In this document: positions 16,028 to 59,999 of the stretch, in pieces
How positions within the stretch are numbered: the stretch's first letter is position 1
Layout of the letters: each line of letters begins with the position of its first letter
IMG/VR virus record: IMGVR_UViG_2938655777_000006
Span: 16,983-80,982 of that record
DNA length: 64,000 nucleotides
Strand: one strand, 5' to 3'
DNA from: a virus
Lineage: Duplodnaviria; Heunggongvirae; Uroviricota; Caudoviricetes
Made by a program: the position numbers and the translations under genes
The notes under the pieces: model-generated
Database searches by the model: none
Told to the model about the DNA's origin: nothing
Seen by the model: only the letters and a program-made list of their open reading frames with translations

Positions 16028-17563
16028 TTAATGATTTTTAGGGTAGTCGTTTGAACCGTTCGTTTTAGATTTTATAGTATTTTCATTAGTGGGATTATCA
16101 TTACTTGGTCGTCCACCATTTTCTGTTGCTGTGTAAGAGGTGAGATGTGGTTTGTATTTTTCTTCAAAGTTTTCTGCAATTTCGTAATCCATAAGAGCGA
16201 GATAGGCATCAGGTCTAAATCCTGTTGCACTTATCCAGGCTATCAATGATCCCCTACCCAAAGTGTATAACTCTTTCATATTTGTGATTGTTTCACTTCT
16301 ATTGATATAGGTAATGGGGAGGTAATAAACCTCTATATAATCATTGGGATCTTGGATTATATTATAGTTGATGACTTTGTTAAATTCATTCTCAAGTTGT
16401 TCAATCCAAGAAAATATTTCAGCGGCAACCAAGTCTAAGTTCGTTTTTTGAGATGTAAAGTTGGAATCTTCGCCATTTAGTGCCGAACCAGCAAATCCCA
16501 AGTCTGTTGCAATCTTTTTAATTAATGCCTCTTCCGAATTAGTTTTCAATAGCTCCACATTTGCTGAAACTTTATCTAGCTTTGTGCCAGAAGCCACACT
16601 AAAAAAACTTACTTTTTTTCGATTACCCCTAGCAAATAATGCATTGCGAATATTGTCATGTTGATCTTTTTGCTGTGTATTTGTTAGTGAAGATGATCCC
16701 TTGGAATCCCCTTCAGGGAAAGTTTGATAAATAATTAAATTATTATTATCGTCCAATACACCTCTTTTTGATTCTGTAAAATAATCTTCATAAAGCATAT
16801 CTATAAAAGCAGCAAGCCCGATTGGTCTGCCATAAGGTTCTTCAATTGAAGCCCTCACCTTAGATGAGACTGTTTTCTTATTGTCTAGCACCATCCATTT
16901 TTTAGTTGTATCTTTTCGATATTCCTGATATTTCTTTCTAATCTCTTGAGGATATCGCTTAAGTTTTAGACTGCGACCATTACTCAAAAATTGATCAAAA
17001 TAAGATAAATTGAAAGCAACAACATATGAGGAATTTAAAGTACCAATAATTCTACAATAGTCTGTAGGTAGAGGCATTAAAGCACAATTAAAATCAAAAT
17101 CATTGATTTCTTTGATTTGAGATATATCATAGTCTTCTAAAGTAGAGGGGAGAGAGGAAGAGAGTTCGGTATTGAAATAGTAATAAACAATTCCGTCCAT
17201 TGCCAACTTTCTTATAGCGTCCCTGATAAGAACTTTGTCACGTATTTTCTTTAGAGATTTTTTGTATTTTTCAACATTTTTTTTTGACTTGTTATGATTG
17301 TTTTTATTTGTACTATAAACAACATTATCGAGCGTTGGAAGAGAAACCATATAGTCAATAACATTGGTATACACACCATTAGCATTATACATTCTTCCAG
17401 ACAGGTGCCTTAACTCCAGATGATATAGCATGGGATCTTTCAACCAACGTTTGACTTGTGAATTGGTTATTTCCCCGCTGTCTCCAATAAATAATTCAAA
17501 TGATCTTAGATTAGAATTCCACTCATATAAAGACTGATCTTTTTCATCGTTCAGCTTATTCAC
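16028..17563 (-). CDS. Portal protein; start probably CTG at 17554
   Basis: About 510 aa directly downstream of terminase; PYGRPIGLAAF family motif. Confidence 0.8.
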   Translation of the reverse strand: MNKLNDEKDQSLYEWNSNLRSFELFIGDSGEITNSQVKRWLKDPMLYHLELRHLSGRMYNANGVYTNVIDYMVSLPTLDNVVYSTNKNNHNKSKKNVEKYKKSLKKIRDKVLIRDAIRKLAMDGIVYYYFNTELSSSLPSTLEDYDISQIKEINDFDFNCALMPLPTDYCRIIGTLNSSYVVAFNLSYFDQFLSNGRSLKLKRYPQEIRKKYQEYRKDTTKKWMVLDNKKTVSSKVRASIEEPYGRPIGLAAFIDMLYEDYFTESKRGVLDDNNNLIIYQTFPEGDSKGSSSLTNTQQKDQHDNIRNALFARGNRKKVSFFSVASGTKLDKVSANVELLKTNSEEALIKKIATDLGFAGSALNGEDSNFTSQKTNLDLVAAEIFSWIEQLENEFNKVINYNIIQDPNDYIEVYYLPITYINRSETITNMKELYTLGRGSLIAWISATGFRPDAYLALMDYEIAENFEEKYKPHLTSYTATENGGRPSNDNPTNENTIKSKTNGSNDYPKNH

Positions 17564-52085: not shown

Positions 52086-52359
52086 ATGTATTCCTCCAAT
52101 ATACTTTTTACTAAGTATATCCAGTTATCAAGTTTTCTATGCAGCAATATTGTAAAAATACGCATGGTGTTTAAATTACTTGACAGAACAAACGTTCCGT
52201 ATTGTATTTTATTATTTTTATTTGTATAATTACCAGTATAGAGAGCAAGAAAGCGAGAAGTATAGTTAGTCAAATTAGAAGTTGTAGATATATATAATAA
52301 GAATACATGGAAAATAACGATAAGAAAAATAAGATTTAATAATAAGGAGCGTGTACATA

Positions 52360-52740
52360 ATGGCGGTAGCAGTGGAAAACGAAGTAAGAGAAATTAAAAA
52401 ATTAGATGTGTGGATCGCAAATTTAGGAGAAACTGATAGAGGAAAAACGAATATTCAAAAAGGACAGCGACCTGTAATTGTTATGAGTAACAATATAGGA
52501 AATAAATTCTCTCCAGTAGTAATGGTAGTACCTTTGTCAGCGCAGACCCAAAAAGCAAACTTTCCAACTCATGTACTTTTAGACAAAGATAAGTGCGGAT
52601 TCGATAGACATTCTGTGGCTCTGTTTGAACAAATGCGAGTTTTAGATAAAAAGGATTTAGCATGCAAGGTCGCAAGCATTCCCCAAGAATATGAATTGAG
52701 TTTAAACAGTACATATAAAGTAGTAGCAGGAATTAGTTAA
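52360..52740 (+). CDS. mazF: MazF/PemK endoribonuclease toxin (NdoA-like)
   Basis: ATG 52360; QKGQRPVIVMSNNIGNKFSP, AQTQKANFPTHV, EQMRVLDK. Confidence 0.92.
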   Translation: MAVAVENEVREIKKLDVWIANLGETDRGKTNIQKGQRPVIVMSNNIGNKFSPVVMVVPLSAQTQKANFPTHVLLDKDKCGFDRHSVALFEQMRVLDKKDLACKVASIPQEYELSLNSTYKVVAGIS

Positions 52741-56558: not shown

Positions 56559-57536
56559 TTGAATAATATATATGGGGATAGCCTATATAATCCAGAAATC
56601 AAAAAAAGATTTTTAAGCGAATTCAGAGAAAACACTCGTAAAAACTATGAAGGAAAGCTAAAACGAGCAAGTAGAGTAGAAATGAGATTAGGTAAAGACC
56701 TCTACGATTTTACATTAAGCGAATTTGAAGAGGTTATTTACCTCTTGGCTCCCACAAAGTTAAGTAGTGCCATGAACTATGGGTCAATTCTCAGAAAATA
56801 TGTTGAGTGGGCAAGTGGGCATGGTCTTAGAAAAGATAAAATGAATCCACTTGCTTCAATGAAAGGGAAAAGCGATTTTGAAAAATTTGTACCACAGCAA
56901 ACATTAATTCGAAAAGATCACCTAGACGATGCTTTATCAGAGTTGGATAGCTATAGAGATATAGCGATAATACTATCAATATTTGAAGGTATACTGGGTA
57001 GAAACAGTTCTGAAATAAGAACTTTAAAAGTGGGAAATATCGATAAGGTCAATAATAAAATAAAACTAACAAATGTAGACCGCTATGAAACAACAGAAAG
57101 AGAAATCATTGTTAGTGATTTTTTAATTGATGCTCTTTTAGCAGCAGATCAAGAGGAAGTGTATAAATCTAATTTTGGTGAAGGCAGCAAAAGAAAAGAC
57201 ACTTCCAAATTAAAAGACAGTGATTATATAATAAAGAGCACAAGAGGAGAAGAAGTTAAGCAGTCATTAATAACATTTGTTATTACTAAATTTGGTGAAA
57301 AGCTGAATAGACCAAGTTTATCTCCAATCGATATAAGAAATTCAGGTATGTTAGAAATGGCAAGAAAAGAATATCTCCGTGAGAATAAAAAAACTTTAGA
57401 TCGTTCAGATATTCATAAGATATGTAAACAATTTAATGTTGGTTTGCGTGATGGTGGCATAATCAACAGTACAATGTATACTCAAGATTTCCTCAATGAA
57501 GAAACCATAAAAAGAGTTTACCCTGAAGTAGAATAA
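56559..57536 (+). CDS. mrpR: MrpR/YopR (SroF)-like master repressor with a degenerate recombinase fold
   Basis: 325 aa; YN.EIK.RFL, LGKDLYDFT..E, IFEGILG, IRNSGM; HxxR His and catalytic Tyr not evident; YopQ-YopR synteny. Confidence 0.78.
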   Translation: MNNIYGDSLYNPEIKKRFLSEFRENTRKNYEGKLKRASRVEMRLGKDLYDFTLSEFEEVIYLLAPTKLSSAMNYGSILRKYVEWASGHGLRKDKMNPLASMKGKSDFEKFVPQQTLIRKDHLDDALSELDSYRDIAIILSIFEGILGRNSSEIRTLKVGNIDKVNNKIKLTNVDRYETTEREIIVSDFLIDALLAADQEEVYKSNFGEGSKRKDTSKLKDSDYIIKSTRGEEVKQSLITFVITKFGEKLNRPSLSPIDIRNSGMLEMARKEYLRENKKTLDRSDIHKICKQFNVGLRDGGIINSTMYTQDFLNEETIKRVYPEVE

Positions 57537-57573
57537 GTTTTTCTTATTCTACTTTTTTTTATGGAAAATTGTG

Positions 57574-57625
57574 TTGACATCAACGAAAACGCATGATATA
57601 TTTAGGGTACAAATTCATTATATTT
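57574..57625 (+). promoter_or_regulatory. SigA promoter of the agr-like operon with two phage motifs
   Basis: TTGACA (57574)-N17-TATATT (57597); ACGAAAACG in the spacer; inverted AAATATAATGAA at 57614-57625. Confidence 0.75.
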
Positions 57626-57649
57626 AATTATAAGAACGTGAGGGCTAAC

Positions 57650-58291
57650 ATGGAAACGGCTAAATACATAATATTTTCAATGTTGGATGGTATGGCAATT
57701 TTTATTTTTGGATTTGGTATGTATTCTATAAAGCTAAGAGACTACTGGGTTCAATTTATCGTTTCAAGTCTGTGTATTTCTGTAGGTACCTTCTTGTATG
57801 TGGAATACGACCTTCCGACTAGAGTTGCACCGATTGCCAATTTATTATTATTGATAATATTTCTCGTGATTTTATTTAAACTATCTCCCCTTTCATCATT
57901 GAGGATATCGGGAATAAGTTTTTTAGTGCAGATGATTTTACAAACTTTAACTGCGCTTATACTTGCAAGTACACTTAATATTGATTTTTTTGAAACAACA
58001 AAAGAATATGGAATACTGATTCAATTCTTGGGTGACACAGTAATGGTCATCATAAGTTTGATATTAAGGAAACGATCTATCTTCTTTACAACATTACCAT
58101 ATCAATATACATTAAAATTCAAAATTAACACCTCGAATATAATACTTTTTATTGTGTCTCTGCTCGGTATAGCTTTAATGACAAAGCCTACTTTCAACAA
58201 TATGACTTCAAGTGTAGTTTTCTGGATAGCAATATTCGTATTATTGATTCTAATAGAAAGAAGAAAGGAAATTAAAAATGAATATGATTGA
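57650..58291 (+). CDS. Polytopic membrane protein resembling an AgrC sensor domain, with no kinase domain
   Basis: ATG 57650; about 6-7 hydrophobic segments; ends 10 residues after the last TM; no H-box or HATPase; overlaps agrB. Confidence 0.7.
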   Translation: METAKYIIFSMLDGMAIFIFGFGMYSIKLRDYWVQFIVSSLCISVGTFLYVEYDLPTRVAPIANLLLLIIFLVILFKLSPLSSLRISGISFLVQMILQTLTALILASTLNIDFFETTKEYGILIQFLGDTVMVIISLILRKRSIFFTTLPYQYTLKFKINTSNIILFIVSLLGIALMTKPTFNNMTSSVVFWIAIFVLLILIERRKEIKNEYD

Positions 58292-58814
58292 TCAAATAGC
58301 CGATAAGTGGAGTTGTGCAGCTAAAAGTAAATATCCTGATGAATTACCGTCACAACAAATAGTGAGATATACATTAAAATTTATAATCTCGAATACCATT
58401 CCCATATTTATAGTATTAATTGCATCGATGCTATTAGGCATTACTAAAGAAACAGTATTTGCATTAATAGGGTTTTCATCACTTAGAATGTTTTCAGGTG
58501 GTTTTCACTTTAAATCGGCAGATATGTGCATAGTTTTTTCATCGCTAGTAATAATTTTAATAGCATTGGGAGGCAATTATTTCGAGAATTACTCTTTTGC
58601 TATGTATCTAGCCAGTGTAATATTGGTAATGATATATGCACCAAGTAAGATAGAACAGCAAACAAGAGTGAAACCGGAAAAATTTAAATGGTTTAAAATT
58701 ATATCCTTAATAATAGTTTCGCTGATATATATAATAAATATTCCAGTAATGAATTTAGCTGTTTTAGTACAAAGTCTCCTCTTGATACGCTTGAGAGGAG
58801 GTGAAAAGTTATGA
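58278..58814 (+). CDS. agrB: AgrB accessory gene regulator B (peptide-processing protease/cyclase)
   Basis: LRMFSGGFH (catalytic His), Cys 7 residues later, YAP motif, TM pattern. Confidence 0.93.
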   Translation: MNMIDQIADKWSCAAKSKYPDELPSQQIVRYTLKFIISNTIPIFIVLIASMLLGITKETVFALIGFSSLRMFSGGFHFKSADMCIVFSSLVIILIALGGNYFENYSFAMYLASVILVMIYAPSKIEQQTRVKPEKFKWFKIISLIIVSLIYIINIPVMNLAVLVQSLLLIRLRGGEKL

Positions 58815-58933
58815 AATTGAACAAACTTATGCTGATTGTTGGTAGTTTTTGCTCTCTGTTGGCAGTAACAGTGGTAAGCACTGCTAGTTGGACATTGATC
58901 CATGGAGAAGCAGTGCCAGAAGAATTGAAATAA
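58811..58933 (+). CDS. agrD: AgrD-like cyclic lactone autoinducer propeptide, 40 aa
   Basis: MKLNKLMLIVGSFCSLLAVTVVSTA-SWTLI-HGEAVPEELK: amphipathic leader, Ser-nucleated 5-residue ring, acidic/Pro tail; overlaps the agrB stop; SD GAGGAGGTG. Confidence 0.9.
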   Translation: MKLNKLMLIVGSFCSLLAVTVVSTASWTLIHGEAVPEELK

Positions 58934-58937
58934 TATA

Positions 58938-58980
58938 TTTGGGGTCCCGCTCTTTCTTCTGGGTGGGGCGAGACCCCAAA
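58938..58980 (+). other. GC-rich stem-loop between agrD and the LytTR gene
   Basis: TTTGGGGTC / GACCCCAAA outer stem plus inner CGCTC/GGGCG pairing. Confidence 0.7.
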
Positions 58981-59000
58981 TGAATTAAGAGGTGATAATA

Positions 59001-59393
59001 TTGAAGTCAACAGACACTATAAAAGTAGTAAAAAAAATAGGTGACAAAATAGATGAAGTAGCAATTATGTTACCAGTGTCAGAAGTTCAAGGATTTAGAA
59101 CTGAAAAAAAGAGCGGAAAAACAGGACAAACACGGATTGTATACATAACAGATAATGGTGAGTTTATTGATGAAACAAGAACAGAACAGACAATGCGTTT
59201 ATTTGAGAACATTGAAGGATTCGTAAGAGTTGGGAGAGGAAGTATGGCCGATGTGACTAAGATTGACGAAATCGATGAAAGGGTATATGAGATATATTTT
59301 GATAAGAGTAAAAAAAGCTTCGTGGAAATCGCAGCGGTACATTTGGCAACAGTAAAAAAAATGTTACAGAGACTAAGAAACAATAAAAAATAA
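59001..59393 (+). CDS. Stand-alone LytTR-like DNA-binding protein (no receiver domain)
   Basis: TTG 59001 after SD GAGGTG; FVRVGRGSMADVTKI resembles the LytTR F.R.HRS.IVN...I motif; beta-rich; 130 aa. Confidence 0.7.
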   Translation: MKSTDTIKVVKKIGDKIDEVAIMLPVSEVQGFRTEKKSGKTGQTRIVYITDNGEFIDETRTEQTMRLFENIEGFVRVGRGSMADVTKIDEIDERVYEIYFDKSKKSFVEIAAVHLATVKKMLQRLRNNKK

Positions 59394-59624
59394 ATGTTAT
59401 TTTTGGTTTACTATTGCTTATACCTTTTGGCAGTAGTATAATTTGAATAAACACGAACATAGGTTCCCTAAATAGCGATTCGACAAAAAGTGACACACTA
59501 TATGGACATTTTTCCAGTATATTGATTAAGTCAATATATTTAGACATGGTGTGTAAAGTTGTTGCCTAATTATAGTAATCTCGTATAATAAAAGTATAGA
59601 ATTCGACAGCAAGGAGATAATGCT

Positions 59625-59999
59625 ATGCAGCAAGACGAACTAATATATCGGCTTGAGATACCACAAAGAGCCACAATAATAATAACAAAAATGAGTTTTC
59701 TTCTAAGAAGTGACTCTGACAGACAAAAAATGTTTACATTTTGCAATGATAATCCCGGCTCTGAGTATGTATTTCTCGCTGAGAAAAGAAAACAGTTGAT
59801 TGACGAAGAAGGTTATAAAGACAAGAATGAATTTATTAGTGATTATAATGATAATAATATCAAGGCGCTTGAGAAATTATGTCAAGAAAAAGTTGATGGT
59901 TTTAAGTTGGCTAGATTAAAAGTAACAGATCCAGAAACATTATATAGCTTGTATGAAAAAAATAAATATTCAAATTTGCTGCATTTAGCCTTGTCTTAG
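59625..59999 (+). CDS. Hypothetical protein
   Basis: ORF track; SD AAGGAG; promoter TTGCCT-N16-TATAAT upstream. Confidence 0.65.
   Translation: MQQDELIYRLEIPQRATIIITKMSFLLRSDSDRQKMFTFCNDNPGSEYVFLAEKRKQLIDEEGYKDKNEFISDYNDNNIKALEKLCQEKVDGFKLARLKVTDPETLYSLYEKNKYSNLLHLALS

Follow-up and report, generated by a model that had tools for sequence, protein, structure and literature searches.

Agr signalling is textbook two-component signalling: how, then, might a phage read an agr-type peptide when it carries neither half of the phosphorelay? The question is raised by a four-gene cassette (positions 57574–59393) in a 64,000-nucleotide (nt) stretch of viral DNA, hereafter the window, which spans positions 16,983 to 80,982 of IMG/VR record IMGVR_UViG_2938655777_000006. 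The window is part of a 201,847-bp (201.8-kb) IMG/VR provirus. The host prophage is a large, SPbeta-like Paenibacillus prophage, and its relatives are prophages in the Paenibacillus polymyxa group. The first gene of the cassette encodes a seven-helix membrane protein, here called Mem, and is followed by agrB, an agrD-type peptide gene, an RNA hairpin and a gene for a LytTR-domain protein without a receiver; the unit lies directly downstream of a gene for an MrpR-like master repressor.

By sequence and conservation, the cassette is a widespread variant of agr-type signalling that lacks the phosphorelay parts. As to how it works, we propose a self-contained peptide pheromone module in which a lactone produced by AgrB from AgrD would be sensed by Mem, and Mem would control the LytTR protein by contact; we give this proposal an even chance of being right. 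All features of the window described below are on its + strand.

The cassette encodes an AgrB peptidase and an AgrD-type precursor

Two of the four genes form an agrB/agrD-type pair, as an earlier sequence-only reading of the window had claimed. The agrB gene (58278–58814), which overlaps mem by 14 nt, encodes a 178-amino-acid (aa) peptidase that matches PF04647 (E = 6.2e-25) and contains His77 and Cys84 in the catalytic G-x-H-x6-C motif found in 15/15 cassette AgrBs. The next open reading frame (ORF; 58811–58933) encodes a 40-aa AgrD-type precursor with a TIGR04223 score of 16.3 bits, below the 19-bit cut-off. Its layout comprises an amphipathic leader, a Ser followed by four residues, five further residues and P-x-E-L; both the Ser at the ring position and the spacing to P-x-x-L are identical to those in the annotated AgrD of phage phiCDHM1. 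The same layout recurs in about 40 cassettes, most of which have Ser as the ring residue and two of which have Cys. By the family rule, the predicted product is a Ser-lactone with the ring Ser-Trp-Thr-Leu-Ile (SWTLI), which is followed in the precursor by HGEAV-PEEL; this is the ring that the sequence-only reading had named.

Pairwise comparison with a relative whose Mem is 81% identical indicates that all four cassette genes are under purifying selection. The ratio of nonsynonymous to synonymous change (pN/pS) is 0.23 for Mem, 0.16 for AgrB, 0 for AgrD and 0.06 for the LytTR protein, the agrD genes differing by four synonymous and no nonsynonymous changes.

In the group of the Brevibacillus phages Abouo (L001:4522-4650) and Emery (L002:4467-4583), with loci L042, L044, L049, L050 and L056, the canonical ring position of the AgrD-like peptides is occupied by neither Ser nor Cys (e.g. 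...KVTIGSP...). The peptide of this group may be linear or have a ring of a different size.

Mem resembles an AgrC-type sensor by predicted fold

Mem (57650–58291; 213 aa) matches phrog_15604 ('membrane protein', 1e-10) and has no match in Pfam or NCBIfam. The sequence-only reading had described it as an AgrC-sensor-like protein without a kinase domain, a description that holds at the level of the fold. The 232-aa ORF begins at an ATG (57593) that falls within the promoter spacer, 4 nt ahead of the −10 hexamer, and the homologues all begin at the ATG equivalent to 57650; we therefore moved the start from 57593 to 57650. A profile search of 1.84e9 protein representatives (E ≤ 1e-3) revealed at least 321 clusters of Mem relatives. 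Among the 150 of 321 matches listed, lengths range from 121 to 240 aa, with nearly all between 190 and 240 aa and none of kinase length.

An AlphaFold2 model of Mem was obtained with an alignment of 145 relatives and shows seven helices, with a predicted local distance difference test score (pLDDT) of 92.3 and a predicted template-modelling score of 0.88; it replaced an earlier model from an 8-sequence alignment (pLDDT 64.5). The charge distribution places the N-terminus outside and the C-terminus inside, and the chain ends a few residues past the seventh transmembrane helix. The nearest named neighbour of the model in the ESM Atlas is a cluster of 424-aa sensor histidine kinases, which aligns over 190 residues with a template-modelling (TM) score of 0.68 and a root-mean-square deviation of 3.9; PF14501 is carried by 98% of the members of this cluster. 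The remaining named neighbours have TM scores of at most 0.44. Among AlphaFold DB clusters beyond its own family, Mem is closest to GHKL-domain proteins (TM 0.57–0.65), a GGDEF protein (0.60) and ComD (0.54), all of which align to it via their N-terminal ~210 residues, the seven-helix part. No meaningful match was obtained with Foldseek against the PDB and BFVD or with VIA-align against PDB representatives, and there were no AgrC-class kinases among the PDB matches listed for Mem. Taken together, the model and the position of the gene, which is that of agrC, support an AgrC-sensor-like nature of Mem, with sequence homology to AgrC not demonstrable.

Conservation in Mem is lowest in the outer loops (0.9–1.2 bits) and highest in the cytoplasmic loops and at the buried residues S10, E13, Q98 and Q125, a combination of variable outer loops, conserved cytoplasmic loops and conserved buried polar residues that would suit a receptor. 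Assignment of Mem as an MroQ/CPBP-type protease or as an inhibitor of the LytTR regulatory system (LRS) type was considered and dropped for lack of a Pfam match.

One unnamed AlphaFold DB cluster entry, A0A0H4NWZ9 (368 aa), superimposes with its first 212 residues on the Mem model with a TM score of 0.76. The ~150 residues beyond this part may form an output domain, which would make the protein a fusion with a Mem-like sensor.

A LytTR-only protein, a hairpin and no phosphorelay

The fourth gene (59001–59393) encodes a 130-aa protein that consists of one LytTR domain and nothing besides. The sequence-only reading had identified it correctly as a LytTR protein without a receiver. Its start, corrected here, we assign to the TTG at 59001, behind GAGGTGA, because the upstream ATG used by relatives is closed by a stop codon here. 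The protein itself scores 21.2 bits with PF04397, slightly under the 22.6-bit cut-off; PF04397 is matched by 9/9 tested family members at E ≤ 0.01 (best 2.6e-10), and the family profile matches the solved LytTR domains of 3d6w (1.5e-4), AgrA (3bs1; 5.6e-3) and ComE.

Between agrD and the LytTR gene lies the RNA hairpin that had been noticed in the sequence (58931–58987; −29.5 kcal/mol, z −3.7), with no clear U tract. The structure is retained in four diverged loci by unrelated stem sequences, and cassettes outside the mrpR-linked group have no gap of this kind between agrD and the LytTR gene. The hairpin probably determines how strongly the last gene is expressed, acting as an attenuator or stabiliser.

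The absence of a kinase and a receiver, proposed for the cassette, holds for the whole 201.8-kb record, in which PF14501, PF02518 and PF00072 have no match. It extends to the relatives of the cassette: no kinase-length ORF matching Mem was present in the 48 loci examined, and no gene for a kinase or receiver adjoins the cassette in the 19 loci with gene-family calls, those of Abouo and Emery among them. The receptor of the arbitrium system, AimR, was likewise not found in the 201.8-kb record, which contains only two short helix-turn-helix matches to NF038310 at 21 and 16 bits, far under the 70-bit cut-off.

The cassette recurs as a unit in phages, plasmids and chromosomes

When phage records were searched, megablast with the cassette region and tblastn with Mem gave no match, and a search of atlas features returned nothing. 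Mem, AgrB and AgrD are encoded together in 48/48 loci, that is, in 13/13 sampled loci and in 35/35 IMG/VR loci found by a scan with the alignment of cassette AgrBs. The LytTR gene follows agrD in 44/48 loci (11/13 and 33/35, respectively), and one of the two IMG/VR cassettes that lack it is truncated by the contig end. Around ten sampled members of the Mem family, agrB and a ~40-aa ORF directly follow mem in 10/10 cases and a LytTR gene is present in 8/10. The overlap between mem and agrB ranges from 4 to 23 nt across loci. A second LytTR gene is located ~0.5 kb past the first in three IMG/VR loci (L031, L041 and L053), and a tandem pair of Mem paralogues is encoded by phage Emery (gp53 and gp54; L002:2547-3948).

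An mrpR gene is directly upstream of the cassette in 7/35 IMG/VR loci (in an eighth, L036, it is ~2.3 kb off), as well as in five other genomes, those of P. polymyxa, P. peoriae, P. dendrobii and P. donghaensis and that of a Logan contig. Genes at the mrpR-linked loci invariably run DndB-MrpR-cassette-orf~125-YorF-AAA_24. The survey of this synteny that had been suggested for the locus thus places the cassette between mrpR and a promoter with a LexA-like box in SPbeta-like prophages of Paenibacillus, with at least 12 independent cases. The Brevibacillus phages Abouo, Davies and Emery carry the four genes in identical order, and in Abouo- and Emery-type phages the cassette is in the integrase/repressor region.

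The cassette is not confined to phages. One member is located on a plasmid, and some cassettes are found on chromosomes. In the core genome of P. polymyxa, genes for Mem, AgrB and AgrD with the ring SYVYV (L020:7001-8269) are flanked by an Acyl_transf_3 gene and rsmD/coaD, and a LytTR gene is absent from the surrounding 7 kb. Since Mem, AgrB and AgrD occur without the LytTR protein, the role of Mem cannot be only to hold the latter; in the three-gene loci, either the output partner is encoded elsewhere or Mem has a LytTR-independent role. A three-gene form like that of P. polymyxa was also observed at locus L023.

A second cassette is present in the same record, outside the window (~188172–189870 of the record; L004:807-2505). 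It encodes a 210-aa Mem, AgrB, a 48-aa AgrD with the ring SLSWI and a 131-aa LytTR protein that scores 26.4 bits, above the cut-off; its proteins are 17–38% identical to those of the first cassette. Its neighbours are an XRE repressor and a YolD-like gene that has a LexA-like box. The second cassette recurs in 54–79-kb IMG/VR proviruses and therefore belongs to a second prophage type.

Control regions of the cassette

The mrpR-like gene (56559–57536) encodes a 325-aa master repressor that matches PF22822 (6.4e-23), PF22823 (2.1e-12) and phrog_5830 (6e-68); as in SPbeta, it is preceded by a DndB-like gene. It ends in an intrinsic terminator with a 13-bp stem and a T run (57525–57555), conserved in four loci, which occupies the 37 nt between the mrpR stop codon and the −35 element of the cassette promoter. 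This promoter (57574–57602; TTGACA-17-TGaTATATT) has 11/12 matches to the consensus plus a TG extension and is conserved in six loci, although the proteins encoded there share as little as ~33% identity. A single strong, near-consensus sigma-A promoter thus drives all four cassette genes, and it begins where it had been placed, with the −35 starting 37 nt past the stop codon.

A speculative LytTR site overlaps this promoter. The direct repeat TATATTTA-N14-TATATTTA (57597–57626) has a period of 22 and extends across the −10 element to about +12. No other perfect pair occurs in the 201.8-kb record, and 3–4 of the six mrpR-linked loci retain this one. The 22-bp period agrees with that of LytTR sites; the sequence is of low complexity, which makes the evidence weak.

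Downstream of the cassette, two promoters precede the early genes. The first (59414–59442; TTGCTT-17-TATAAT), read from the sequence, is conserved in four loci and is followed, ~12 nt past its −10 element, by a palindrome resembling the binding site of LexA (CGAAC-N4-GTTCC; 59454–59467), which occupies the same place in five to six mrpR-linked loci. The consensus of the LexA site of Bacillus, the Cheo box, is CGAAC-N4-GTTCG, and CGAACATAGGTTCC fits it.

Comparison with known peptide and LytTR systems

Phage-borne agr genes have been described for phiCDHM1 (Hargreaves 2014, PMC3901668), which indeed carries agrC-agrB-agrD, as the sequence-only reading had stated. This locus, of the C. difficile agr3 type, resembles the cassette in its location on a phage, in the order of the receptor gene, agrB and agrD, in the overlap between the first two (8 nt versus 14 nt in the window) and in the lack of an AgrA-type response regulator. 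It differs in that its AgrC (453 aa) has a GHKL kinase domain (PF14501, 4e-26) and in that it has no LytTR gene. The same study noted membrane proteins of three Brevibacillus phages as possible AgrC homologues without an ATPase domain and made no mention of a LytTR gene in these cassettes (PMC3901668). Reviews repeat only the phiCDHM1 case, papers on Brevibacillus phages list merely 'accessory gene regulator B', and full-text searches of the literature turned up neither functional nor comparative work on the four genes as a unit.

The closest phage counterparts are in fact these Brevibacillus loci. Abouo gp44–gp47, and likewise the genes of Davies and Emery (gp53/54–57 in the latter), encode in the same order a 222-aa membrane protein, AgrB, a ~40-aa peptide and a ~122-aa LytTR protein. 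Their membrane proteins match the Mem profile at 1e-38 to 1e-44, and the Abouo LytTR protein scores above the Pfam cut-off; the fourth gene is annotated in these phages as 'peptidase' or 'hypothetical'. These cassettes are only 17–32% identical to that of the window and have neither a hairpin nor mrpR. Against Abouo, pairwise BLASTP with Mem and with the LytTR protein was not significant, the kinship being visible only by profiles.

With Staphylococcus aureus agrBDCA, the cassette shares the His/Cys pair of AgrB, the five-residue ring position and P-x-E-L recognition tail of the AgrD precursor, the polytopic sensor fold and the LytTR output domain. Unlike the S. aureus system, it lacks the DHp/CA kinase domains and the receiver, has another gene order and has Ser instead of Cys as the predicted ring residue; direct repeats that could serve as an activator site are not evident upstream of its −35 element. 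The nearest mechanistic precedent is, by analogy, offered by the LytTR regulatory systems of Streptococcus mutans, HdrRM and BrsRM, for which phosphorylation-independent control through inhibition by a membrane protein has been proposed or shown (PMC6193735). In these, too, a receiver-less LytTR regulator is encoded together with a membrane protein. However, the regulator gene comes first in HdrRM and BrsRM, whereas mem is three genes upstream of the LytTR gene in the cassette; their membrane proteins belong to other families (e.g. DUF2154), and the unit has no peptide-synthesis genes. The operators of such systems are ~9-bp direct repeats separated by 11–13 bp and located 4–11 bp upstream of the operon −35 (9-bp repeats 12 bp apart just upstream of −35 in HdrRM and BrsRM), and the only pair in the cassette overlaps −10 and about +12. 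The cassette is therefore not a member of these systems.

Arbitrium, finally, shares with the cassette a phage-encoded secreted peptide, a location in the lysogeny-control region and an SPbeta-like phage background with an MrpR-type repressor. Its parts, AimR, AimP and AimX, are unrelated to those of the cassette: it has an intracellular tetratricopeptide-repeat receptor, for which the record has no match above the cut-off, a linear hexapeptide and a dependence on import by Opp. Among cellular systems in Paenibacillus, the agr peptides of P. polymyxa have been shown experimentally and control antibiotic production (PMC12180512). The locus of that study was rejected as a member of the cassette family, its peptide ICFGLF being the product of a different, Cys-type agr locus.

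A model of signalling without a phosphorelay and its alternatives

In the proposed circuit, whose flow of signal we infer throughout, next to a parts list, its conservation, a predicted fold and an absence of kinase and receiver that we observe, the peptide that AgrB makes from AgrD would be secreted as a Ser-lactone, (tail)-cyclo(SWTLI), and would be bound by the variable outer loops of Mem. The signal would be relayed via the cytoplasmic face of Mem, where the FR loop, the G-F-x-F loop at residues 142–160 and the KE tail are located, and Mem would hold or release the LytTR protein by direct contact, as in pairs of membrane inhibitors and LytTR regulators. The LytTR factor, freed or captured, might then tune phage promoters at the repeat in the cassette promoter and at the SOS-type early promoter downstream. 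Cell or lysogen density could thereby modulate the maintenance or induction of lysogeny in SPbeta-like Paenibacillus prophages. A role in lysogeny control is made plausible, though not proven, by the absence of arbitrium and by the fixed site of the cassette, with mrpR on one side and the SOS-type early promoter on the other. The full version, in which a kinase-free AgrC-type sensor gates a free LytTR protein on a Ser-lactone and sets density-dependent lysogeny and induction at the SOS early promoter, with co-resident prophages using different peptides, strikes us as possible but on balance doubtful.

Covariation gives a hint and no more. Distance matrices of Mem and the LytTR protein are correlated with r = 0.82 (partial r = 0.57 given AgrB), the correlation between AgrB and the LytTR protein drops to 0.23 given Mem, and that between Mem and AgrB retains a partial r of 0.51 given the LytTR protein. 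This pattern would fit Mem as the link between AgrB and the LytTR protein, with the limit that linked genes co-vary anyway.

Several observations weigh against the proposal. Mem is invariably coupled in translation to AgrB, which a partner in biosynthesis would fit equally well, and at two chromosomal loci (L020 and L023) mem, agrB and agrD have no LytTR gene within 5–7 kb. Some cassettes reside among ordinary chromosomal genes, in non-phage contexts. Alignment of the Mem family with phiCDHM1 AgrC by hhalign is in register and not significant (probability 0.4%, E = 0.16), and Foldseek of Mem against Swiss-Prot AlphaFold models returned no meaningful match. The candidate LytTR sites are of low complexity or oddly spaced; the cassette promoter is near consensus and has no space for activator repeats upstream of −35, so that the positive feedback usual in agr and LytTR regulatory systems is not evident. 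Lastly, the ring SWT[LIF][ILV] is nearly constant among prophages whose Mem proteins are only 32–37% identical and whose proteins apart from the ring share ~35% identity, whereas arbitrium peptides diversify.

Alternatively, Mem would not be a receptor and would assist AgrB with production or export of the peptide or with tolerance to it, for instance by handling the lipophilic AgrD intermediate or protecting the producer, while the LytTR protein acts as an independent regulator under a different control. Such a role would account for the constant overlap of 4–23 nt with agrB, for the loci without a LytTR gene, for the Mem–AgrB correlation that persists once the LytTR protein is removed and for the lack of significant homology to AgrC. 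Yet the fold of Mem matches sensors attached to kinase or GGDEF outputs, not transporters or proteases, and Mem has no match among the Pfam families of proteases or transporters. Nor is its coupling to agrB unusual in a receptor gene, given that phiCDHM1 agrC is likewise upstream of agrB and overlaps it. In S. aureus, AgrB and AgrD alone are enough for peptide production. The same was found for P. polymyxa agrBD, which suffice to make the peptide in B. subtilis (PMC12180512). We consider this explanation unlikely.

The cassette might also signal as proposed and serve a purpose other than the lysis-lysogeny choice of the phage itself: it might be a module for lysogenic conversion or competition that alters the behaviour of the host, or one that senses or jams related peptide systems, whether encoded by the host or by prophages in the same cell. 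The second cassette in the record, with the ring SLSWI, belongs to another prophage type; a Mem-AgrB-AgrD set with the ring SYVYV is present on the P. polymyxa chromosome, and some P. polymyxa strains carry canonical agrABCD. The constitutive-looking promoter of its own and the terminator-bounded layout are moron-like, the cassette occurs outside phages, and its ring is almost invariant across distantly related SPbeta-like prophages. Against a purpose other than lysogeny control stand the site between mrpR and the SOS-type early promoter, strictly conserved across species, the position in the integrase/repressor region in other phage families and the failure to find AimR in this prophage record, and we think such a purpose improbable, if worth keeping in mind. 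A circuit completed by the host, in which Mem pairs with a host kinase or other transducer and the LytTR protein acts downstream of, or competes with, a host AgrA-type regulator, appears very improbable. It draws on the scope of the kinase search, which covered the provirus record and not the host genome, on the agrABCD genes that P. polymyxa strains can carry and on a few longer structural neighbours of Mem such as the 368-aa entry; it is opposed by the lack of kinase-length matches in 48 loci and of adjoining kinase or receiver genes in 19, by a LytTR protein without a receiver domain to phosphorylate and by the movement of the cassette as a unit among phages, plasmids and chromosomes of different species, which argues for autonomy.

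If the phosphorelay-free module that we favour is real, it would represent a second way of reading cyclic peptide pheromones, with both halves of the phosphorelay missing, and one that is widespread, with at least 321 Mem sequence clusters; in Paenibacillus and Brevibacillus, its members occur on phage genomes, plasmids and chromosomes. For phages, it would also be a second means of communicating by peptides next to arbitrium, placed at the corresponding control point in SPbeta-like genomes. Prophage cassettes could add to or interfere with the agr signalling of P. polymyxa, a plant probiotic.

Other candidate operators and the first early gene

Just past the LexA-like box, a CGACA-N5-TGACA direct repeat (59481–59495), unique in the record, is a further candidate operator; in the form CGACA-N5-YGACA it is present in all six mrpR-linked loci. 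It was rejected as an MrpR site on account of its single occurrence in the record. The repeat is followed by the second promoter, orf124 and the replication genes. The product of orf124 (59625–59999), the first gene behind the promoters with the LexA-like box, matches no family and is encoded in every mrpR-linked locus (124–126 aa); it is a candidate anti-repressor or early regulator.

The window contains two GAAC-N4-GTTC palindromes (52186–52197 and 59455–59466) versus 0.38 expected. As an MrpR operator this motif was rejected, since it fits the Bacillus LexA box and the SPBRE of MrpR is a 15-bp motif at many promoters. The two LexA-like palindromes suggest that both flanks of the lysogeny module may be under SOS control. 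The palindrome at 52186–52197 overlaps the TTGACA promoter of a gene for a PemK/MazF-like toxin (52351–52740).

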